Positions 670 through 10,131 of a stretch of 10,349 nucleotides of DNA are shown piece by piece (the stretch's first letter is position 1; each line of letters opens with the position of its first letter). The stretch comes from Candidatus Diapherotrites archaeon CG08_land_8_20_14_0_20_30_16. GTDB lineage: Archaea; Iainarchaeota; Iainarchaeia; Iainarchaeales; 0-14-0-20-30-16. The notes under the pieces were generated by a model. The model was given only the letters and a program-made list of their open reading frames with translations, did no database searches and was not told the DNA's origin. The translations under genes and the position numbers were made by a program. Location: contig PEXK01000032.1 of assembly GCA_002779075.1 (NCBI GenBank), positions 1 through 10,349 on the forward strand, in the 5' to 3' direction.

Positions 670-2967
670 ATGACACACAAAGATGCGAATTTGCCGTGGG
701 TTGAAAAATATAGGCCTGATTCTTTAAATGATGTTGTAGGAAACGAACTAGTTGTAAAAAGATTAAAGAAATACACAGAGGATAAAGATCTTCCAAATAT
801 GATTTTTGCAGGGCCCGCAGGTACAGGAAAAACAACCAGTGCAATAGCAATATCTAAACAATTGTTCAAAGAAAATGCTGAGAGAAATTTTTTAGAATTA
901 AATGCGAGTGTAACACCAGATACACCAATTTTAATAAAAGAAGGCAAAGAAATACATAGAGTTAATTTTGGTTGGCTCGCAGAGAAATATTTTTTAGATT
1001 TTGTATCTAAGCGGGTTTGTATTGATGATCTAGAAGTGTTATCTTTAGATAAGTGCAACAATGTTAAATTTATGAAAGTAGGACATTTGTTTAGACATAA
1101 AGTAAACGAAATATTAAAAATAAAATATGAAGGTGGCGAAGTAAAAACAAGTTTATCTCATTCTATAATGGTTTTTGATGATTGTGGCAATATAATTACT
1201 AAAAAAGCCTCAGAAATAAAGAAAGGCGATCTTTTGATTTCTTTTAAAACAGATTTTGAAGGGCAATCAAATTATATTGATTTAGAAAAATATAAATCTG
1301 CTGAATTTTGTCAATTAAGAAGTGGTATTCAACCAAATCCTACATTCAAAAAAAATTTTGACACACTTTCAATTGATGATGATTTAAGTTGGTATTTTGG
1401 AATGTATTTAGCAGAAGGTTGTACTTCTATGTCAAACACAGGTACTAGTGGTCAGATTATTTATACTTTGGGTTATCCCAACCCAAAAGATGTACCGCAT
1501 ATAGAAAATATACAAAAAATAAGTACTTCTTTAGGATTAAACTATTCTTGTTATTTAGGAGCATCTGGTTTTGATAGAACAAAGAAAACCTCTTTGCAGA
1601 CAAGAGTTTTTAATACACAATTAGCAAAGTTTATGCAAGCTAATTTTTATGGTGGCGATATATCCCACAAAGCGAATACAAAAAGAGTACCCACCTTTAT
1701 TTTTGATACAAATTCAAAACAAAGATTATCATTTATAAAAGGATATTGGGATGGTGATGGTTCCGGAATTTGGGAAAAAGTTGCACGAATATCATCAGTA
1801 TCTCAAGAATGTCTTATAGATGTTGTTTGGTTAAGTAGACTATCTAATGTTGAATCAAGCGTTTTTCCAAAAGAAACAAGATTAATTTGGCCAAATAAAT
1901 CTTTTAGTTATACTAAAGCAGAACTTTTGCCATCAAAAATATTCAACAAATTAGCAGAAAAATACAAAGGGAAGACAAAATATTTGCTGAGACATTCACT
2001 TTATAGTAAAATGTGTGATCGTATTTCGAAGACTGCTGCAGAAAAAGTATTGGCATTATTAAAAAATAAAAAAGGATTAGAAAAGCTCAACAAATTAGTA
2101 AATTCTGATTTATATGTTCTAGCGGTAACAGAAATAAAAAAGGAAAAACATAATGATTATGTGTATGATGTTTCTGTTCCGGGTGCTGAAGTTTTTTGGG
2201 GTGGCACAGCCCCTGTTTTGCTTCATAATAGTGATGACAGGGGCATCGATGTTGTTAGAAAAACAATAAAAGATTTTGCAAGAACCCTCCCCTTAGAGGC
2301 TGAGTATAAAATTATTTTTTTGGATGAGGCGGATGCTTTAACACAAGATGCCCAGCAAGCATTAAGAAGAACAATGGAAAAATATACAAGAACATGCAGA
2401 TTTATTTTATCTTGCAATTATTCATCACGCATTATTGAACCAATACAATCAAGATGTGTTGTCTTTAGGTTTAAGCCTTTGGAAAAAGAATCTGTTATAA
2501 ACAGACTAGAAGAGGTTTCGAAAAACGAAAAACTAAAAATAGATAATAAAGCATTGAGCGCAATATTTTATGTTTCATTAGGCGACATGAGAAAAGCAAT
2601 AAATATTTTACAAGCGTGTAGTGTTTTGGATGATTCTATTGGTGAGCAAGAAGTATTCACAGTAAGTGCCAGGGCAAGGCCTGAAGAAGTAAAAAAAATG
2701 GTTTTACTCGCAAAAGATGGAAAATTTAAAGATGCAAGAGATCTTTTATACAAACTGATGTTTAATTATGGTATGTCTGGAGAAGATATTTTGAATCAAA
2801 TTTATCGCGAAGTAGTTGATTTTTCAGAGGATTATTTGAATTCGAGAGAAAAAGTAAGTTTAATTGAGATTATAAGTGAAATTAATTTTAGAGTATCTGA
2901 AGGTGCAAACGATAGGCTTCAAATAGAGGCTATGTTGGCCATGTTTAATTTACACACTAAGCAGTAA
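670..2967 (+). CDS. rfcS: Replication factor C small subunit (clamp loader AAA+ ATPase), intein-containing precursor
   Basis: The RFC boxes are readable in the translation:
- PWVEKYRP (box II);
- GPAGTGKTT (Walker A);
- LELNA...SDDRGIDVVR (box IV, split by the insert);
- IIFLDEADALT (Walker B);
- ALRRTMEKY;
- IQSRCVVFRF (SRC motif);
- GDMRKAIN.
The two exteins total 324 aa, a typical size for an RFC small subunit. An AGAGGGA ribosome-binding site at 658-664 precedes the ATG at 670. Confidence 0.95.
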   Translation: MTHKDANLPWVEKYRPDSLNDVVGNELVVKRLKKYTEDKDLPNMIFAGPAGTGKTTSAIAISKQLFKENAERNFLELNASVTPDTPILIKEGKEIHRVNFGWLAEKYFLDFVSKRVCIDDLEVLSLDKCNNVKFMKVGHLFRHKVNEILKIKYEGGEVKTSLSHSIMVFDDCGNIITKKASEIKKGDLLISFKTDFEGQSNYIDLEKYKSAEFCQLRSGIQPNPTFKKNFDTLSIDDDLSWYFGMYLAEGCTSMSNTGTSGQIIYTLGYPNPKDVPHIENIQKISTSLGLNYSCYLGASGFDRTKKTSLQTRVFNTQLAKFMQANFYGGDISHKANTKRVPTFIFDTNSKQRLSFIKGYWDGDGSGIWEKVARISSVSQECLIDVVWLSRLSNVESSVFPKETRLIWPNKSFSYTKAELLPSKIFNKLAEKYKGKTKYLLRHSLYSKMCDRISKTAAEKVLALLKNKKGLEKLNKLVNSDLYVLAVTEIKKEKHNDYVYDVSVPGAEVFWGGTAPVLLHNSDDRGIDVVRKTIKDFARTLPLEAEYKIIFLDEADALTQDAQQALRRTMEKYTRTCRFILSCNYSSRIIEPIQSRCVVFRFKPLEKESVINRLEEVSKNEKLKIDNKALSAIFYVSLGDMRKAINILQACSVLDDSIGEQEVFTVSARARPEEVKKMVLLAKDGKFKDARDLLYKLMFNYGMSGEDILNQIYREVVDFSEDYLNSREKVSLIEIISEINFRVSEGANDRLQIEAMLAMFNLHTKQ
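907..2229 (+). mobile_element. Intein (441 aa) with a LAGLIDADG homing-endonuclease domain, inserted in RFC box IV
   Basis: Removing 907-2229 restores the canonical LELNA-SDDRGIDVV.
- The N-terminal splice block is SVTPDTPILIKEG (Ser1).
- The block-B-like motif is KTSLSHSIMV (1147-1161).
- The two LAGLIDADG-type motifs are LSWYFGMYLAEG (1384-1419) and LSFIKGYWDGDG (1726-1761).
- The C-terminal blocks are YVYDVSVPGAEVFWGG and VLLHN, followed by Ser+1 at 2230.
The insert is in frame and has no stop codons. Confidence 0.9.
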
Positions 2968-3014: not shown

Positions 3015-3029
3015 TAAACAGTAAAATTT
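3011..3029 (+). promoter_or_regulatory. Palindrome-plus-TATA element, copy C (ACACTAAACAGTAAAATTT), likely promoter of the pilus ATPase gene
   Basis: It has one mismatch to the corresponding part of copy B. The A/T box at about 3022-3029 lies roughly 30-35 nt upstream of the ATG at 3058, which fits an archaeal TATA box with a very short leader. Confidence 0.4.
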
Positions 3030-3057
3030 GTGGTTAGGTATAAATATTGGTGATTTG

Positions 3058-4734
3058 ATGGGAGAAATAATGGGAGATTTATTTAAGGATACTCAACAGA
3101 AGAAAAAGAAAGATATTAGACAAGACGATTTTAATAAAGAATTGCAGAGTATAATTGGTTCGCCAAAGAAAATTTCTTTGCCAGAAGAGGAACAGTCAAC
3201 AAAAGATGTACCAATTCAAAAAATTGATTCAAAACATTTTGAAAATCTCAAAAATATACTGAATACAACAAAAGAAATAAGTGTAGATTCTTTAGGAGAA
3301 GTTCAAAAAACAGTTGTTGCAAAATATAATCAAGTTACAATATACAAATTAGAAGGACGCCCATTATTGCATTATGAAGTGCCTGTGCCAAAAGCAAATA
3401 CGAGCGAACAAGAAATAATAAATACAATAAAGGAAGCAGCTACAAGAATAATTTCTCTAGCACCATATAAAATAAGGGACGAGAAACAAAGATGGAATGT
3501 TTATTATCAAAAAGTTATGGAAATAATTAATTCATCTCCAGAATTGAAAATTCCAGAGAGCATGTTAAGTTTTTATGCTGAAAGTGTTGTAAGAGAAATG
3601 GTGGGTTTTGGAAAAATAGATCTTTTGTTAAAAGATGATTTATTAGAAGAAATAATGATTATTGGCCCAAACCACCCAGTGTACGTTTTTCATAGGCAAT
3701 ATGAAATGATGACAACAAATATTGTTTTTTATACTGATAAAGAGATTCAAGATATTGTTGGAAGAATTGCAAGATATGCAGGAAGAAGAATAGATTATTC
3801 ACAACCATTATTGGATGCTCGTTTGCCTGATGGATCAAGAGTAAATGCTACTTTGCCCCCAGCATCTGTTCAAGGCTCTACCTTAACTATTAGAAAATTT
3901 AGAGAAGAGCCATATACTGTTGTTGATTTGATAAGTTATAAAACATTTGATTCTTATGTTGCTGGTTTTTTATGGACTTGTGTTGAAGGCTTAAGTACAA
4001 AACCAGCAAATATCGTTATTTCTGGAGGTACAGGATCAGGTAAAACAACAACTCTAAATGTTTTGTGTTCTTTGATCCCTGAATATGAAAGGATTATTTC
4101 GATCGAGGACACTTCAGAATTAAATCTCCCTTTGAAACATTGGATTAGATTAGAATCTAGGCCACCAGGAATAGAAGGCACCGGGGAAATTACTTTAGAG
4201 ATGCTTACAAAGAATGCTTTGAGAATGAGACCCGATAGAATAATAGTTGGTGAAGTAAGAGGTGCTGAAGCAGATACTCTTTTTACTGCTATGTCAACAG
4301 GACACGATGGAAGTATGGGAACATTGCATGCAAACAATTCTGATGAAACTTTAACACGAATTACAAACCCACCAATGAACGTTCCTAAGATGATGTTGGC
4401 AGGATTGGATATGATAATTGTTCAAAATAGGTTGCACGACAAAAAAAAAGGAACAATAAGACGAATTGTGGAGATTTCTGAAGTTTCTGGCGTTATTGAA
4501 GATCAAATTAAAACACAAAGGATATTTGAATGGGATCCTAAACGCGATAAAATATATGATACTTCTATACCTTCAAGAGTAGTTAAAAATATTTCAACAT
4601 ATTCTGGAAGAACAACACAAAATGTAAAAGACGAAATAGATAATAGAGCACAATTCTTTGATTTGTTGTTAGAAAAAAATATAAGAAAAAAAGACGATGT
4701 CGCAAAATATATTGCGAAATATTATGAATCTTAA
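3058..4734 (+). CDS. Type IV pilus / archaellum-family assembly ATPase (FlaI/ArlI, EpdL, TadA/CpaF, VirB11 superfamily)
   Basis: Four signature motifs are present:
- Walker A GGTGSGKTTTLN (4024-4050 region);
- Asp box ISIEDTSEL;
- Walker B RPDRIIVGEVRGAEA (4234-4263 region);
- His box TGHDGSMGTLHANN.
I moved the start from the track's TTG at 3028 to the ATG at 3058, which is preceded by GGTGA at 3049-3053. The ATG at 3070 is an alternative start. Confidence 0.9.
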   Translation: MGEIMGDLFKDTQQKKKKDIRQDDFNKELQSIIGSPKKISLPEEEQSTKDVPIQKIDSKHFENLKNILNTTKEISVDSLGEVQKTVVAKYNQVTIYKLEGRPLLHYEVPVPKANTSEQEIINTIKEAATRIISLAPYKIRDEKQRWNVYYQKVMEIINSSPELKIPESMLSFYAESVVREMVGFGKIDLLLKDDLLEEIMIIGPNHPVYVFHRQYEMMTTNIVFYTDKEIQDIVGRIARYAGRRIDYSQPLLDARLPDGSRVNATLPPASVQGSTLTIRKFREEPYTVVDLISYKTFDSYVAGFLWTCVEGLSTKPANIVISGGTGSGKTTTLNVLCSLIPEYERIISIEDTSELNLPLKHWIRLESRPPGIEGTGEITLEMLTKNALRMRPDRIIVGEVRGAEADTLFTAMSTGHDGSMGTLHANNSDETLTRITNPPMNVPKMMLAGLDMIIVQNRLHDKKKGTIRRIVEISEVSGVIEDQIKTQRIFEWDPKRDKIYDTSIPSRVVKNISTYSGRTTQNVKDEIDNRAQFFDLLLEKNIRKKDDVAKYIAKYYES

Positions 4735-4818: not shown

Positions 4819-5952
4819 ATGGCTTATCAACAAACCTTTGTTTCAGATACCAGCAAAAATAAAGTTGAAATACAAGAACAGATAGACATGTCTAAAGTTG
4901 ATGCCATAGTTAATAGAATAAAAGAAAAATATGAGAAGCAAGGATTGTTAGGGGATTCAGAAACATATAATTTAAAAGAATTAAGATCATTGATCTCCGA
5001 GGGAAAAAGAGCAAAGATAGAAGTGTTGAAGCCTGCTGATTTATCGTACAGTTTTAATCCTGTTGTACGAAATATTGGCACAATATATACTAAATTCAGC
5101 AAGTTTTTTGGATTTATTGCAAAAAAGATTTTAGGAAAATTGCCAGAGTCTAAAGTGTTAGCATACGAACTTTATTCTGCAGATATAAATTATAGTGTTT
5201 CACAATATTTGGCAATAGCATCAGTTTCTGTTTTTTTATTTAATTTGGTAGTAATTATTGCATTATTTTCTGTATTTTTATTGTTAGGAGTAAGTTTTTT
5301 AATACCTTTAATATTGTGCATCTTCTTTTTTATAGGGGGTGCATTTTTTGCTTTGAAATACCCCTCAATGATTGCAAAAAAGAGAGCTAAAGAAATAGAT
5401 ACTAATTTGCCTTTTGCATTAAGGCACATGGCAACTCTCTTGAGAGCTGGGGTGGACTTGTATAAAGTGGTAAGAACAGTTGCTGTATCTGATTATGGTG
5501 TTTTGTCACAAGAATTAACAAAAACAATAATGGAAGTTGAAGAAGGCCAAGACATTAAAGATGCTTTGAGAGCATTATCCCTCAGAACAAAATCATTTGC
5601 TTTGAAAAACGCAATAAATCATTTGTTAAGAGCATTAAAGAGCGGAGGAAATTTGTCAGAAATAATGACAACAATTGCAGATGATGTGTCTTATCAATTG
5701 TCTGCAGATATTGATACCTTTTCTGGGAAATTAAATTTTTTAGGAGTAATTTATATTTTTGTTGGAATTGTTGTTCCTGTAATGTTGGCAATATTATCTG
5801 GAATAAGGAATGCGCCTTTGGGATCGAGCATTTCCTTTTTTGATGCTCTTCCTTTAACTCCAACTGTAATAATAATTTCTTTTTTAGTAATATTCCCGCT
5901 GATATTATTGGGTTTGTTATTGTATATTAGAAGTATAAGGCCAAGTATATAG
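4819..5952 (+). CDS. Pilus platform membrane protein with a single T2SSF domain (TadB/EpdJ-like)
   Basis: One T2SSF-type cytoplasmic domain is visible (LPFALRHMATLLRAGVDLYKVVRTVAVSDYGVLSQELTKTIMEVEEGQDIKDALRAL ... LLRALKSGGNLSEIM). It is flanked by hydrophobic transmembrane segments. An AGAGGAA ribosome-binding site lies upstream of the ATG at 4819. Confidence 0.85.
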   Translation: MAYQQTFVSDTSKNKVEIQEQIDMSKVDAIVNRIKEKYEKQGLLGDSETYNLKELRSLISEGKRAKIEVLKPADLSYSFNPVVRNIGTIYTKFSKFFGFIAKKILGKLPESKVLAYELYSADINYSVSQYLAIASVSVFLFNLVVIIALFSVFLLLGVSFLIPLILCIFFFIGGAFFALKYPSMIAKKRAKEIDTNLPFALRHMATLLRAGVDLYKVVRTVAVSDYGVLSQELTKTIMEVEEGQDIKDALRALSLRTKSFALKNAINHLLRALKSGGNLSEIMTTIADDVSYQLSADIDTFSGKLNFLGVIYIFVGIVVPVMLAILSGIRNAPLGSSISFFDALPLTPTVIIISFLVIFPLILLGLLLYIRSIRPSI

Positions 5953-5961
5953 TGATATTTT

Positions 5962-6870
5962 ATGTTCAATATAAATTTGATGTTGCAAAAATACCAAACT
6001 GTTTTGTACAGGAACAAAATAAAGATAAATGTTAATCTTTGGCTTCTCCTTGCTTTGATTGTTGGTTTGATAGTTTTGTTTTTGTTTATTTTATTAGGAA
6101 ATATAGTTTTAGGGATCGTAGGATTTTTGTGTGCATTTGATTTGTTTATAGGTTATCCCTTATTTTTAGAAGAGAAAAGAATTTCTCTTATAGAAAAGTA
6201 TTTTCCAAATGCATTAAGAGAAATTGCATATCTTTTAAAAACCGGAGGAACGTACGAATACGCTATAAGAGAGTTGACAACTTATGATTATGGGCCATTG
6301 AATGATGAATTTGAAAATGTTTTGCTAAGATTAGAACAAGGTTATAATTTTGAAGAATCATTATCTATTGTTGCTGAAAATGTAGATTCACAAATGGTGA
6401 AAAAGACAATATCTATAATTTCAGATTCTATAAAAGCTGGTGCTTCTTTATCAGATATTTTAGAGGATTTGTCTGAAGATATGCGAAAATTATACAAATT
6501 AGAATTAGATAGAAAAGCAAAAACAATGATGCAAATGCTTTTTATTTTTGCAGCTGGAGCAATAATTGCTCCCGCAATCTATGGTTTGGTTTTAACCCTA
6601 ATCGATTTTTTACTTACTGTAACATCATCTGCAGGACTGGCAAAGCTAGAAACAGTTGCAACTGCACTAGGTGTTAGAAATTTAATCGAAAGCGTATTAA
6701 CTATATTTGTTTTTATTCAGGCTTTGGCATCATCTATAATGGTTGTTTTCATGCGTGAACGTAAATTTGCAAAAACCTTTTTGTATCTGCCATTGTTTTT
6801 ATTGTGTGCGTATATTGCATTCTACGGCATAAAGTACCTTTCGAAATATTTATTAATAGGAATGATGTAA
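5962..6870 (+). CDS. Pilus platform membrane protein with a single T2SSF domain (TadC/EpdK-like)
   Basis: This is a second, divergent T2SSF-type domain (FPNALREIAYLLKTGGTYEYAIRELTTYDYGPLNDEFENVLLRLEQGYNFEESL ... IKAGASLSDILEDLSEDM). It has an N-terminal transmembrane segment and C-terminal transmembrane segments. The gene starts 9 nt after the previous stop. Confidence 0.85.
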   Translation: MFNINLMLQKYQTVLYRNKIKINVNLWLLLALIVGLIVLFLFILLGNIVLGIVGFLCAFDLFIGYPLFLEEKRISLIEKYFPNALREIAYLLKTGGTYEYAIRELTTYDYGPLNDEFENVLLRLEQGYNFEESLSIVAENVDSQMVKKTISIISDSIKAGASLSDILEDLSEDMRKLYKLELDRKAKTMMQMLFIFAAGAIIAPAIYGLVLTLIDFLLTVTSSAGLAKLETVATALGVRNLIESVLTIFVFIQALASSIMVVFMRERKFAKTFLYLPLFLLCAYIAFYGIKYLSKYLLIGMM

Positions 6871-6885
6871 TTTTAGTGAGCATTT

Positions 6886-7065
6886 ATGAATGAAAGTTAT
6901 ATTGATGATAAAAAAGCACAAACATCTTTGGAAGTAATATTGATTGTAGCTGGTGTTTTGGTACTAGTTACATTAATAGGTTATTATATTAAAACCAAGG
7001 TTGTTGAATCTCAACCAGATGAAAACAAGTGGAAAGAATTGTATGAAAAAACAAGTGGAAAATAA
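6886..7065 (+). CDS. Mini-pilin 1, class III signal peptide protein (59 aa; absent from the ORF track)
   Basis: Hand translation gives MNESYIDDKKAQTSLEVILIVAGVLVLVTLIGYYIKTKVVESQPDENKWKELYEKTSGK. It has a basic KKA followed by Q, then SLE and a hydrophobic helix of about 20 aa, the same design as the two neighbouring pilins. Confidence 0.75.
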   Translation: MNESYIDDKKAQTSLEVILIVAGVLVLVTLIGYYIKTKVVESQPDENKWKELYEKTSGK

Positions 7066-7088
7066 AATTATTTTTGGAGGGGTAAAAA

Positions 7089-7292
7089 ATGAAATTTCTA
7101 AAAGATGAAAAAGCACAAGGCGCTTTGGAGTACCTTTTAATTATTGGTGGGTCTATTGTTCTGGCTGCTGTGGTTATTGCTATTGTAATTAATTTGGGCA
7201 AGAAAGGCGGCTCAGATGTAAATAGCCAAACCGAAGTTTACACGAATACCTTAAAAAGCGGAAAAAATGCAATACCAGAAATAGAGCAGTGA
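7089..7292 (+). CDS. Mini-pilin 2, class III signal peptide (former DUF361-type) pilin, 67 aa
   Basis: The protein begins MKFLKDEKAQGALEYLLIIGGSIVLAAVVIAIVINLG. This matches the archaeal class III signal peptide consensus of a basic residue, a small residue, Q, then xxLEYLL. A strong GGAGG at 7076-7080 lies 8 nt upstream of the ATG. Confidence 0.9.
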   Translation: MKFLKDEKAQGALEYLLIIGGSIVLAAVVIAIVINLGKKGGSDVNSQTEVYTNTLKSGKNAIPEIEQ

Positions 7293-7299
7293 TCCTTTT

Positions 7300-7479
7300 A
7301 TGTATTTTAAAGAAAAGAGGGCTCAAGTATCTTTAGAGTACCTCTTAACTATTGTTTTTGCAATTGTTTTGGTTGCAATAGTTACTGTCTTTGTTTTAAA
7401 TGTGCATTACTTAGGTGATGTTGCAAAGGACAGAATAAAAAATTATAAAACAAAATACTTTGAAAAAATCTTCGCCTAG
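7300..7479 (+). CDS. Mini-pilin 3, class III signal peptide protein (59 aa; absent from the ORF track)
   Basis: Hand translation gives MYFKEKRAQVSLEYLLTIVFAIVLVAIVTVFVLNVHYLGDVAKDRIKNYKTKYFEKIFA. It carries the same KRA-Q-xSLEYLL motif and starts 7 nt after the stop of pilin 2. Confidence 0.8.
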   Translation: MYFKEKRAQVSLEYLLTIVFAIVLVAIVTVFVLNVHYLGDVAKDRIKNYKTKYFEKIFA

Positions 7480-7480
7480 C

Positions 7481-7511
7481 ACACTGGGCATACAGTGTAG
7501 AATATTTTATG
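7481..7511 (+). promoter_or_regulatory. Palindrome-plus-TATA element, copy D (ACACTG-GGCATA-CAGTGT-AGAATATTTTATG)
   Basis: A perfect 6-bp inverted repeat (7481-7486 / 7493-7498) begins 2 nt after the pilin-3 stop and is followed by an A/T-rich, T-run-containing box. It could act as a post-pilin terminator hairpin, as an operator plus TATA box, or as both. Confidence 0.4.
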
Positions 7512-7575
7512 TCTATTGACACAAATATTTTACAAAGTGTCACAAGATCTTTGGAATACAAAGCCTTAATGACAC

Positions 7576-7587
7576 AAATTTTATGTA
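7576..7587 (+). promoter_or_regulatory. TATA-like box AAATTTTATGTA, likely promoter of the prepilin peptidase gene
   Basis: This 12-mer is identical to 2979-2990. It lies about 40-48 nt upstream of the ATG at 7624, which leaves room for a short leader carrying AGGA (7614-7617). Confidence 0.35.
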
Positions 7588-7623
7588 GTGCTAGGATGTG
7601 TGGTTGTGTTGCTAGGAATTACT

Positions 7624-8739
7624 ATGTCTATCTACTTCTTAATAAATTGTATTATTGTTTTTGTCTGTCTTCTTTATTCAACAATTACTGATATTAAAAA
7701 AAGAGAAGTATCAAATTATATCACTATTGGCCTTTTGGTATATGGTACAATTGCAAATGCAATTTATTTCTTTCTGATTAAGGGCTATTTATCAACTATA
7801 TATTTTCTTATGTTTGATGCTCTTGTTTTTTTGATTTGTTATTTGCTTTGGAAATTAGGAATTTTTGCAGGCGGAGATGCAAAACTATTTTCTGGAATTG
7901 CAGCAACCATTCCTATATTGAGTCAATCAATTTTTTTTATGGGGTGGTCTGGGTTTCCATTTATTTTATCTCTTTTTATTTTGTCTATTTTAGCAATGTT
8001 CCCTATAGTATCAGTAAAACTTCTTTTTGTATACTTTAAAAGAGCAAATATAAAAGAAAAAGTAGTAAGTAGTTTAAGAAAAAATTTTGCAGGATTTGTT
8101 TTCAATATTCTGTATGTTGTTTCTCTTTTTTTTGTATTTTCGTTTTTTACTCTTCCATTTTGGATATTTTTAATAATATCCATATTTTTGGGTTTTGTAT
8201 CAAAGAGAATAAGGTACCCATTATCTGTTGTAATTTTTGTAGTTGCTGTAATAATAAACCCGAGCAGTACTATTTCTGTTATGCTATTATCTATTGTGAT
8301 TGCTTTGTTTATTGCTTTAATGATTAACTTGTTTGTACTTTCAAAATCTGGAATCTTCAATTATAAAAAAAGAGTCGCGGATTTGATGGAAGGAGATTTA
8401 TTGGCACATAATTTAATACAGGATAATAAGAAATTAATTCCATTGAAGTTTGATTTTTGGCTACACCTAAAAATAGCATTTAAACAGAGTCTGAAAAAAG
8501 GTATAAAACCTATTTTTGAATTGTTGGAAAAGAGAAAGCATTTATATAGAGAAATTGTTATTAATAATACCTTGGCAGCAGGGGTGTCAAAAAAAGAAAT
8601 TTCACAAATAAAGAAAAGATATTTTGAGAAGGAAATTGAATTAAAGGAAACAACGCCTTTAGTTCCAAGCATATTGCTTGCATATGTTGTTTTAATTGTT
8701 TTTGGTGATGTTGTATGGTTGCTGGTTTCTTTAATATAG
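7624..8739 (+). CDS. Archaeal A24-family prepilin/preflagellin peptidase (FlaK/PibD/EppA-like), long form (371 aa)
   Basis: The first catalytic Asp sits in LLYSTITDIKKREVSNY (D at 7690-7692). The second sits in GIFAGGDAKLF (D at 7876-7878). The protein is polytopic. A C-terminal soluble segment is followed by TPLVPSILLAYVV. I moved the start from the track's GTG at 7588 to the ATG at 7624, so the protein begins MSIYFLINCIIVF with a transmembrane helix, as in FlaK/PibD. Confidence 0.9.
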   Translation: MSIYFLINCIIVFVCLLYSTITDIKKREVSNYITIGLLVYGTIANAIYFFLIKGYLSTIYFLMFDALVFLICYLLWKLGIFAGGDAKLFSGIAATIPILSQSIFFMGWSGFPFILSLFILSILAMFPIVSVKLLFVYFKRANIKEKVVSSLRKNFAGFVFNILYVVSLFFVFSFFTLPFWIFLIISIFLGFVSKRIRYPLSVVIFVVAVIINPSSTISVMLLSIVIALFIALMINLFVLSKSGIFNYKKRVADLMEGDLLAHNLIQDNKKLIPLKFDFWLHLKIAFKQSLKKGIKPIFELLEKRKHLYREIVINNTLAAGVSKKEISQIKKRYFEKEIELKETTPLVPSILLAYVVLIVFGDVVWLLVSLI

Positions 8740-9299
8740 GCAAAAAGGGGCAATTGAGTGTTGAGTTTTTGCTTATTTTGCTGGTTGTTTTGATAATTAT
8801 AGAAACAATAATTATTCCATTAAGGGATTATTCACAGGCATCTGTTGAGGATATGGTTGCAATAAGTTATTTAGAAGAAAACATATCAAAAATTCAAAGC
8901 GTAATTCAAGATTTGAATACCTATTCAGAAGCAAAATTGACACTAAAGATTCACGTTCCAGAAGATGCAAATTTTTATATTACAAATGTAAGTTTTACGG
9001 GACCTTTGGTATCAACAACTATAAGTTATTCATATGTTTTAAAATCTTATGATTTAAATGTGGGCTCATGTAGTTCTAATGGTTGTCTAAATTCAACAAA
9101 CACATCTCCAATATGTATAACCAATTCCCAGCAAATATCTACACCTCAAATAGTATGTACGCTTACAGGGAACTTTAAGCCTTGCATTTTTTTTCCCATT
9201 ACTAGATATGGTTATTTATTGTCCGAAGGGAGCTATTTATTGGAATTTAAAAAATCGGGAAATACAACAACAATATCAAAAGAGGAATTATATGAATAA
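8715..9299 (+). CDS. Pilin-like protein with class III signal peptide (194 aa)
   Basis: The N-terminus is MVAGFFNIGKKGQLSVEFLLILLVVLIIIE, that is KKG then Q, with E at +5. The C-terminal part is Cys-rich (5 Cys) and carries several N-x-S/T sequons (NIS, NVS, NST, NTS, NTT). The gene overlaps the peptidase gene by 25 nt. Confidence 0.75.
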   Translation: MVAGFFNIGKKGQLSVEFLLILLVVLIIIETIIIPLRDYSQASVEDMVAISYLEENISKIQSVIQDLNTYSEAKLTLKIHVPEDANFYITNVSFTGPLVSTTISYSYVLKSYDLNVGSCSSNGCLNSTNTSPICITNSQQISTPQIVCTLTGNFKPCIFFPITRYGYLLSEGSYLLEFKKSGNTTTISKEELYE

Positions 9300-9624
9300 A
9301 GGGCAAGTAGCAATAGATCTGCTTTTTGCAGTTATTTTATTTTTGGTTATTGTAACCTTCTTTCTTAATTATGTTAATGATTTGAATCAAACAACAGATG
9401 ATTATATTTCAAATGTTTCTTTATTTAATTCATATATTTTAACCTACGATTTGGTAAAAAGCACTGATTATATAAAAGATATAAACGTAATATTTTATTT
9501 CAAAGACATTAATTTTTCCTACGATACAACCAATAAAAGAATAATTTTGGACGAAAATAACAATTATATAATATCTACAAAGAATATTTTTTGCAAGCCG
9601 CAAATAAAGGCTTGTGGTAAGTGA
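9292..9624 (+). CDS. Pilin-like protein with class III signal peptide (110 aa)
   Basis: From the ATG at 9292 the protein begins MNKGQVAIDLLFAVILFLVIVTFF. GAGG at 9282-9285 precedes the start, and the ATGAATAA overlap with the upstream stop suggests translational coupling. The track's start at 9208 would add 28 non-pilin residues that overlap the previous gene. Confidence 0.7.
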   Translation: MNKGQVAIDLLFAVILFLVIVTFFLNYVNDLNQTTDDYISNVSLFNSYILTYDLVKSTDYIKDINVIFYFKDINFSYDTTNKRIILDENNNYIISTKNIFCKPQIKACGK

Positions 9625-9630
9625 TTCTAT

Positions 9631-10131
9631 ATGCAAAAAGGATTTTTCATATCTTTAGATTTAATTATCTGTGTTGTTGCAGTATTCTTTTTGTTTGGAA
9701 TTCTAGGGGCTTATTTGCATTCAGGAATACAAGACTTTGCAACCTACAAAGATGATGCAAAAATGCAATCAACAATGAATATTGTACTCAATAGATTAGC
9801 AAGCTCAGAACATAGTTGTGATATGGTAGATGATCTAGGGTTTAGTATTAAAAAAGTGAATTTTTGTATACAGCTTAACACTAATTTGTCAAATCTGATT
9901 AATGATTTGGATTATAACGTTTCTATAGGTTGTTACGCCTACTCTAAAAACCTATTTGTGCCCTGTTTTCAAATACATCCTTTTGTGCTTTCAAATTCAG
10001 AGAAATATATTGCAAAAGATATTTTTCTTTTGGTACCCTCAAATACTTTATTTAAACAAAAATATTTTGAATGTACTGAAGGAAATTGCGGCATAAATAT
10101 TACATTGGTGAGAGTGTATGTTTGGAATTAG
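9631..10131 (+). CDS. Pilin-like protein, class III-type signal peptide with KG-F junction (166 aa)
   Basis: The protein begins MQKGFFISLDLIICVVAVFFLFGILGAYL, a very short basic leader followed by a hydrophobic helix. The remainder is a Cys-containing domain with NLS, NVS and NIT sequons. Confidence 0.65.
   Translation: MQKGFFISLDLIICVVAVFFLFGILGAYLHSGIQDFATYKDDAKMQSTMNIVLNRLASSEHSCDMVDDLGFSIKKVNFCIQLNTNLSNLINDLDYNVSIGCYAYSKNLFVPCFQIHPFVLSNSEKYIAKDIFLLVPSNTLFKQKYFECTEGNCGINITLVRVYVWN

Follow-up and report, generated by a model that had tools for sequence, protein, structure and literature searches.

Three tandem mini-pilins in a probable Epd-like pilus operon of a DPANN archaeon

The 10,349-bp stretch of contig PEXK01000032.1 analyzed here (the window; Candidatus Diapherotrites archaeon CG08_land_8_20_14_0_20_30_16, G+C content ∼30%) is a row of plus-strand genes, three of which lie side by side and encode very short pilin precursors that we refer to as mini-pilins 1, 2, and 3. 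We conclude, with a probability of about 0.8, that these are class III signal peptide pilin precursors of the EppA-dependent type (PF04021/DUF361), encoded in a self-contained Epd-like operon (Makarova clade 1, or "system 1") of a DPANN archaeon close to the Diapherotrites/Iainarchaeum metagenome-assembled genomes (MAGs). In this operon a secretion ATPase gene is followed by two platform genes with single T2SSF domains, the three mini-pilin genes, an EppA-like A24 peptidase gene, and genes for larger pilin-like proteins.

An earlier sequence-only reading had described the trio as adjacent genes for proteins of 59, 67, and 59 aa that share a basic-Ala-Gln junction, and both the list of open reading frames (ORFs) and the raw sequence bear this out. 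The precursors begin MNESYIDDKKA/QTSLEVILIV (mini-pilin 1), MKFLKDEKA/QGALEYLLII (mini-pilin 2), and MYFKEKRA/QVSLEYLLTI (mini-pilin 3), and in each the junction is followed by ∼20 hydrophobic residues. Cleavage between Ala and Gln is predicted from the EppA substrates of Methanococcus maripaludis (PMC3875500, PMC4390842), which would place the cuts at KKA/Q (Gln codon 6919-6921), EKA/Q (7116-7118), and KRA/Q (7324-7326), respectively. Cutting before Gln would remove a basic leader of 8-11 residues and leave mature proteins of 48, 58, and 51 aa, with Glu at position +5 in all three and Val (mini-pilin 1) or Tyr (mini-pilins 2 and 3) at position +6.

Their proposed identity as class III signal pilins bearing Gln+1 was upheld by their matches to PF04021 (Class_IIIsignal, DUF361; gathering score 23.7 bits) and by the EppA-like peptidase gene nearby. 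Mini-pilin 1 scored 33.4 bits (E = 4e-8), above the gathering score, and mini-pilins 2 and 3 fell just under it. All three carry the signature of the family, that is, a short basic leader ending in Gly or Ala, Gln+1, Glu+5, and a hydrophobic helix of ∼20 residues. The family model also matched all 58 of 58 short relatives (best E = 3.4e-9). A search of mini-pilin 1 with TIGR04205 (archaeosortase D/PIP-CTERM-associated class III protein) gave 19 bits, below the cut-off of 65.

A Shine-Dalgarno-like element, a piece of the GGAGGTGATCC consensus, lies 4-6 nt upstream of each mini-pilin ORF; the longest is that of mini-pilin 2, GGAGGGGT. Compared with their L006 orthologues (on a metagenome contig, one of the loci surveyed below), mini-pilins 1, 2, and 3 had ratios of nonsynonymous to synonymous substitution (dN/dS) of 0.22, 0.20, and 0.29, respectively, at a near-saturated dS of 0.7-1.6. 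We conclude that the mini-pilin ORFs are real genes because of their PF04021 matches, Shine-Dalgarno-like sites, dN/dS values, and conserved position; a reading of them as spurious ORFs was ruled out by the same Pfam matches, ribosome-binding sites, and dN/dS values together with synteny. The expectation that routine annotation would miss such short genes was not borne out. Mini-pilins 1 and 3 are identical to PIU22290.1 and PIU22291.1, respectively (each named "hypothetical protein" by NCBI, Candidatus Diapherotrites archaeon), and 59-aa and 67-aa mini-pilin genes were called by the JGI and ENA gene callers as well, so the genes are called but poorly named. Relatives bear the public names "class III signal peptide-containing protein," "Flp family type IVb pilin" (Candidatus Micrarchaeia), and "Flp pilus assembly pilin Flp."

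The conservation of the array was surveyed in nine loci, namely the window and eight other DPANN-type loci obtained by exact-protein look-ups of relatives (L005, L006, and L008-L013; L005, from Candidatus Iainarchaeum SKW153, is the same locus as L007, and L009 is Micrarchaeia-like). A class III mini-pilin array followed by an A24 peptidase gene is the core order in all eight other loci, which shows that these small ORFs are conserved in related genomes. The ATPase gene and two T2SSF genes lie directly 5' of the array in seven of the eight; L013 has a T2SSE gene elsewhere on its contig. By motif scan, each locus has 3-6 array genes and the nine loci together have 35 array pilins; residue counts were taken over the 32 with a mature length of 30-61 aa. 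Glu+5 and Leu or Ile at +7 are present in 32 of these 32 (Gly+7 never occurs), and Tyr+6 in 26. When a profile of 13 mini-pilins was compared with 1.84 billion representative sequences, 1994 clusters were matched at E ≤ 1e-3, and about half of the best 150 were ≤75 aa long. From this result, we conclude that mini-pilins form a large family and are not a peculiarity of the window.

The members of the arrays fall into three types by position. Of 280 comparisons across the nine loci, 203 paired an array pilin with a best match of its own positional class (first, middle, or last) in the other locus, against 100 expected at random; clustering of raw identities by the unweighted pair group method with arithmetic mean gave no clean separation of the three types, and this best-hit positional test did. 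The first type, to which mini-pilin 1 belongs, is the shortest and accounts for four of the six departures from Tyr+6, and the best match of mini-pilin 1 is the first array gene in four of the eight other loci. In eight of nine loci, the mature protein of the last type, represented by mini-pilin 3 (QVSxEYLLT..F.I), is exactly 51 aa long. The middle type, represented by mini-pilin 2 (QGALEYLLIIGG), is present in 1-4 copies per locus and as a single copy in the window. Among strain-level variants of mini-pilin 2, all 10 variable sites lie within residues 46-66, and the four near-identical type-2 copies of L008 differ mainly in their tails. The middle type also has a stand-alone paralogue of 58 aa, PIU22504.1 (8001-8177 in L003/L004), which is 63% identical to mini-pilin 2 over an aligned 76% of the latter. 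Its gene lies immediately 5' of secD/secF and outside any pilus operon, in a Diapherotrites genome that is very likely the operon-bearing MAG. The remote position of PIU22504.1 recalls the distant location of the major pilin gene of M. maripaludis. The ribosome-binding site, copy number, tail-confined variation, and stand-alone paralogue suggest that mini-pilin 2 is most likely the major subunit.

The sequence-only reading had also matched the predicted mature N terminus to the register of bacterial Flp pilins, and this part of the claim held for the Glu5-Tyr6 register. Caulobacter PilA, whose sequence is 100% identical to P0180 ("Flp family type IVb pilin"), was used to gather Flp pilins, of which 41 were aligned. 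When the 58 archaeal mini-pilins were compared with this Flp profile by hhalign, the match had a probability of 95.9%, an E value of 5.5e-9, and a score of 45.4, as against 9.5 ± 2.3 (maximum 15.6) for 100 column-shuffled Flp profiles and 16.1 for the reversed profile. The alignment lays KA/QGALEY on SG/ATAIEY so that positions -1, +1, Glu+5, and Tyr+6 coincide and the leaders align (FLKDEK with FLKDES), and a BLASTP alignment of 36 aa between mini-pilin 2 and Caulobacter PilA shows 42% identity. The complete Flp motif (G/XXXXEY followed by Gly+7) is absent, however, as position -1 is Ala, +1 is Gln, and +7 is Leu or Ile. The proposed check against profile models likewise succeeded for PF04021 and not for PF04964 (Flp_Fap), which gave no match at E ≤ 1 for any window mini-pilin; mini-pilin 2 reached E = 0.29 with Flp1_like only, and PF04964 was matched weakly by 9 of the 58 relatives (best E = 3.2e-4). 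By curated criteria, the window mini-pilins are not members of the Flp family; homology is nonetheless supported by the profile-profile comparison.

The description of the mini-pilins as helix-only pilins agrees with the AlphaFold2 model of mini-pilin 2 (13-sequence alignment), in which residues 2-61 form a single helix with a mean predicted local distance difference test value of 78, exceeding 90 in the N-terminal half.

The genes flanking the array encode the expected parts of a type IV filament machine (Table 1). The ATPase matched Pfam T2SSE at E = 1.1e-46, and its NCBIfam scores were 313 bits for FlaI and 245 bits for the TadA family, both under their respective cut-offs. Among solved structures, it scored 275 bits with Archaeoglobus fulgidus GspE2, 252 bits with Tad CpaF, and 227 bits with FlaI. 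Its true start is possibly the Met codon at residue 11 or 15 of the listed ORF. Each platform protein has one PF00482 domain (E = 3e-21 for protein 1 and 5.2e-16 for protein 2); protein 1 is 72% identical to its L006 orthologue, with a dN/dS of 0.15, and protein 2 is identical to PIU22289.1 and has a dN/dS of 0.13. The peptidase matched Peptidase_A24 (E = 1.1e-10) and the archaeal Arc_PepC domain (E = 6.4e-5), and its best NCBIfam match was EppA (E = 5.7e-13, spanning profile positions 3-331 of 334). Its listed ORF begins at GTG 7588, and comparison with the L005 orthologue suggests ATG 7624 as the real start. Read from there, the protein has ∼9 hydrophobic segments and the catalytic motifs Asp23 and GGD85, which would fit the EppA variant with nine transmembrane segments (9-TM) described by Makarova et al. 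(PMC4858521). A search of the Protein Data Bank (PDB) with the peptidase returned nothing at E ≤ 0.01. A scan of genome contigs with the peptidase gave 186 pattern matches, none of which was confirmed, and one with a TadC-like alignment returned only the Iainarchaeum SKW153 locus, already among those surveyed. Judged from its gene content and from the ATPase score for Tad CpaF, which exceeds that for FlaI among solved structures, the window operon probably belongs to the Epd-like clade.

Downstream of the peptidase gene are three genes for candidate or possible minor pilins. The first product (8715-9299) scored 24.8 bits with PF04021, above the cut-off, and its counterparts in L005, L009, L010, L012, and L013 likewise lie downstream of the peptidase gene. 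The second (9292-9624) has a Shine-Dalgarno-like GAGGA upstream and only weak N-terminal matches to ComGE and DUF7287. The third (9631-10131) shows a basic-Gly junction, QKG/FFISLD, followed by a hydrophobic helix, and matched no family in Pfam or NCBIfam. Mid-sized pilins with mature lengths of 96-109 aa are encoded within the arrays of L009 (7303-8114) and L010 (7721-8044), where a QGAxEY N terminus is fused to Cys-rich C-terminal extensions, indicating that the mini-pilin scaffold can gain a head domain.

Table 1. Features of the pilus operon in the window
Feature	Position	Strand	Basis
Pilus assembly ATPase (T2SSE/VirB11 superfamily)	3028..4734	+	Pfam T2SSE, NCBIfam, PDB matches
Platform protein 1 (TadB-like), single T2SSF domain	4819..5952	+	PF00482
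Platform protein 2 (TadC-like), single T2SSF domain	5962..6870	+	PF00482
Mini-pilin 1, "first" positional type, 59 aa	6886..7065	+	PF04021
Mini-pilin 2, "middle" positional type, 67 aa	7089..7292	+	PF04021
Mini-pilin 3, "last" positional type, 59 aa	7300..7479	+	PF04021
Terminator-like hairpin, T-rich tail	7481..7498	+	Consensus scan
EppA-like class III signal (prepilin) peptidase, 371 aa	7624..8739	+	Peptidase_A24, Arc_PepC
Larger pilin-like protein, candidate minor pilin, 194 aa, KKG/QLSVEFLL	8715..9299	+	PF04021, motif scan
Pilin-like protein, candidate minor pilin, 110 aa, NKG/QVAIDLLF	9292..9624 (ATG 9292)	+	Motif scan
Possible further pilin-like protein (tentative), 166 aa, MQKG/FFISLDLIICVV	9631..10131	+	Translation only

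A putative hairpin (ACACTG-GGCATA-CAGTGT; 6-bp stem, 6-nt loop, and the tail AGAATATTTT) begins two bases past the stop codon of mini-pilin 3, in the 144-nt gap before the likely peptidase start. The region has three such terminator-like sites, where 0.4 would be expected, by consensus match only. The hairpin may attenuate read-through from the pilin genes into the peptidase gene. A sigma-70 promoter scan of the region returned 5 sites against 5.6 expected and was uninformative, its model being unsuited to archaea.

Other features of the loci were recorded alongside. The 60-aa ORF at 7509-7691 (plus strand) appears spurious, and positions 1-669 of the window contain only a low-complexity 90-aa ORF (118-390) and a 42-aa ORF (530-658), with no convincing gene identified. 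The replication factor C small subunit gene at 670-2967 (plus strand) is interrupted by an intein (Pfam Intein_splicing, 61.9 bits, residues 126-520), giving a protein of 765 aa versus 320 aa for the intein-free L006 orthologue; a replication factor C gene also lies directly 5' of the pilus operon in L006 and L012, and one is nearby in L013. The window pilus ATPase (568 aa) has no intein, and those of L008 (1-4584), L009 (1839-4724), and L010 (1803-4784) carry one or two, which contain LAGLIDADG homing-endonuclease domains and sometimes a helix-turn-helix domain as well. Genes for PMT-family glycosyltransferases (PF02366/PF13231) adjoin the peptidase gene in L008 (9088-10683) and L011 (8844-10049) and have no counterpart in the window; they hint at glycosylation of pilins in those organisms. 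The three window mini-pilin sequences contain no N-glycosylation sequons.

We propose that the mini-pilin precursors would enter the membrane via their hydrophobic helix and that the EppA-like aspartic peptidase (7624-8739) would cut the basic leader of 8-11 residues between Ala-1 and Gln+1. The ATPase (3028-4734) and the two platform proteins (4819-6870) would then pull the mature helices of 48-58 residues out of the membrane, and the helices would pack into a thin helix-only filament like the Caulobacter Tad pilus, with the polar C-terminal tails forming its surface. Mini-pilin 2 would be the likeliest major subunit and mini-pilins 1 and 3 conserved, specialized small subunits. The larger pilin-like proteins (8715-10131) could serve as minor pilins, probably in priming, at the tip, or in adhesion, and the filament would likely be used for adhesion to surfaces or host cells. 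The analysis shows that the genes are real, to which family they belong, how the operon is composed and conserved, that the mini-pilins are homologous to Flp in the same register, and that mini-pilin 2 is modeled as one helix; where the leader is cut, that a filament forms, which subunit is the major one, and what the system does are inferred.

Several results weigh against this interpretation. Mini-pilin 2 (23.4 bits, E = 5.7e-5) and mini-pilin 3 (21.5 bits, E = 2.1e-4) scored 0.3 and 2.2 bits under the PF04021 cut-off, respectively. The peptidase scored 48.9 bits with the NCBIfam EppA model, whose cut-off is 450, and is therefore described as EppA-like and not as an EppA equivalog. No accessory ATPase of the TadZ, FleN, MinD, or FlaH type was found among the window proteins, though one is possibly encoded elsewhere in the genome. 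A sequence search of the PDB with the mini-pilin profile gave non-significant matches to archaeal pilins and archaellins (best E = 0.16) and did not retrieve Caulobacter PilA, and Foldseek found no match in the PDB for the single-helix model, as expected for a lone helix. In addition, the signs that mini-pilin 2 is the major subunit are all indirect, and cleavage, a filament, and expression are predictions for this DPANN clade.

The suggestion of subunit switching, made from the sequence alone, would have the three genes encode interchangeable major pilins for switching or surface variation. It draws on the four L008 copies with differing tails, on the strain variants of mini-pilin 2 that differ only in the tail, and on Haloferax volcanii, in which a pilus can be assembled from any one of six PilA pilins (PMC4858521). 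We consider it unlikely and disfavor it on the evidence of the nine loci: the window genes are of different positional types that are retained together there, best matches among array pilins kept to the same class at twice the random expectation, and the last type is fixed in mature length in all but one locus. Retention of the three types across nine loci argues against simple subunit switching, and the maintenance of ancient paralogues next to one another speaks for separate roles. Switching would perhaps act only within type 2, which is single-copy in the window, and switching or variation may occur among type-2 copies where several exist, as in L008. For the window, these data favor one major pilin (mini-pilin 2) with two dedicated small subunits over switching among equals.

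Two further explanations accept or replace parts of the Epd-like assignment. The mini-pilins might be processed class III substrates that form no external adhesive pilus and serve in a short pseudopilus, in secretion or in the uptake of DNA, or as membrane signaling peptides; secretion and DNA uptake are tasks to which machines of the type IV filament kind have adapted repeatedly (PMC6668835), the window proteins showed no adhesin domain, and DPANN archaea depend on exchange with hosts. This seems quite improbable given that the closest characterized relatives, M. maripaludis Epd pili and the bacterial Tad pili, are external and adhesive (PMC3875500, PMC10710030), and the diversification of the mini-pilin 2 tail fits an exposed surface. 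Recent acquisition of a bacterial Tad system by the archaeon would explain the Flp-like motif; in its favor are the identity between mini-pilin 2 and Caulobacter PilA (leader FLKDE included) and the fact that NCBI and JGI name some relatives "Flp family type IVb pilin." Such a transfer is extremely improbable: the peptidase has an Arc_PepC domain and matches EppA best, Gln+1 is the EppA signature (PMC4390842), the best solved relative of the ATPase is archaeal, Gly+7 is found in none of the 32 mini-pilins, and no window pilin matches the Flp_Fap model. Neither a secretin nor TadZ, TadD, TadG, or TadE/F was detected among the window proteins.

The locus is a clean and compact case of an archaeal Tad-like pilus operon from a member of the DPANN, organisms that probably rely on surface filaments for attachment to hosts. 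The kind of system is already described, and the finding is correct but ordinary. Its modest additions to the literature consulted are the Tyr+6 and Flp-like leader in DPANN mini-pilins, the consistent absence of Gly+7, and the conserved three-type array, which gives a hint on how a helix-only filament may be started and finished and opens no new category. The DPANN mini-pilin clade keeps most of the Flp prepilin signature (leader FLKDEK-A/G, Glu+5, and Tyr+6), whereas the only characterized Epd pilins, from M. maripaludis, are without Tyr+6. A tentative and rather doubtful extension is that, among living archaea, these loci are the nearest kin of the system from which bacterial Tad pili arose, and that the conserved first/middle/last trio would form a heteromeric helix-only filament with small initiator or terminator subunits. 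To our knowledge, a filament of this kind with such dedicated subunits is undescribed for any type IV filament.

Among known systems, M. maripaludis Epd pili (EpdE/MMP1685 as the major pilin, MMP0528, MMP0903, and MMP1283 as small pilins, and EppA) share with the window a class III signal peptide with Gln+1 and Glu+5, very short pilins, a dedicated long A24 peptidase (in the window with a predicted ∼9 TM segments), two platform genes, and extra, larger minor pilins (PMC3875500, PMC4858521). The EppA substrates of that organism are 67-76 aa long and carry Gln+1 and Glu+5; their Flp-like size was noted by Nair et al. (PMC3875500), who stated that Tyr+6 and the Flp motif are absent from them. The mature pilins are 54-63 aa (PMC3875500, PMC4390842), and processing by EppA requires Gln+1 (PMC4390842). 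The window differs in having Ala where Epd pilins have Gly at -1, in Tyr+6 (two of its three genes, and most mini-pilins of the clade, as counted above), which Epd pilins lack (PMC3875500), in having the parts in one compact operon where those of Epd are spread over at least four loci, in the absence of N-glycosylation sequons from its three mini-pilins, and in its organism, a DPANN archaeon and not a methanogen.

System 1, or the Epd-like clade, has been reported in methanogens, Thermococcales, and DPANN (10.64898/2026.04.22.720090; PMC4858521; PMC6668835), and a 2026 preprint describes system 1 (Epd) loci in DPANN and an Epd pilin that, like Tad pilins, has no globular domain (10.64898/2026.04.22.720090). 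The window shares with this clade the ATPase, two platform genes, and short pilins, and its peptidase may be the 9-TM variant; it lacks the FleN/MinD-type ATPase and many accessory genes of the methanococcal system 1 loci.

The Tad pilus of Caulobacter is helix-only and packs like archaeal pili, and Gly+7 forms the 3-10 helix of the Flp motif (Sonani et al., PMC10710030). Bacterial Flp/Tad pilins (type IVc, PF04964; for example, Caulobacter crescentus PilA, PDB 8U1K) have in common with the window pilins a mature length of 40-60 aa, a continuous helix without a globular domain, the Glu+5/Tyr+6 register, a similar leader (FLKDEKA in the window and FLKDESG in PilA), and two single-domain platform genes (PMC10710030, PMC6668835). 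The window differs in lacking a secretin, TadZ, and TadE/F/G and in its peptidase, which is EppA-like and ends in an archaeal domain where Tad systems have the short TadV/CpaA type. Two single-domain platform genes and short pilins define the clade that unites Epd-like and Tad systems, and bacterial Tad is held to be derived from an Epd-like archaeal system (Denise et al. 2019, PMC6668835). The presence of the Glu5-Tyr6 dyad in archaea, in the same register, adds sequence-level support for this published origin of Tad.

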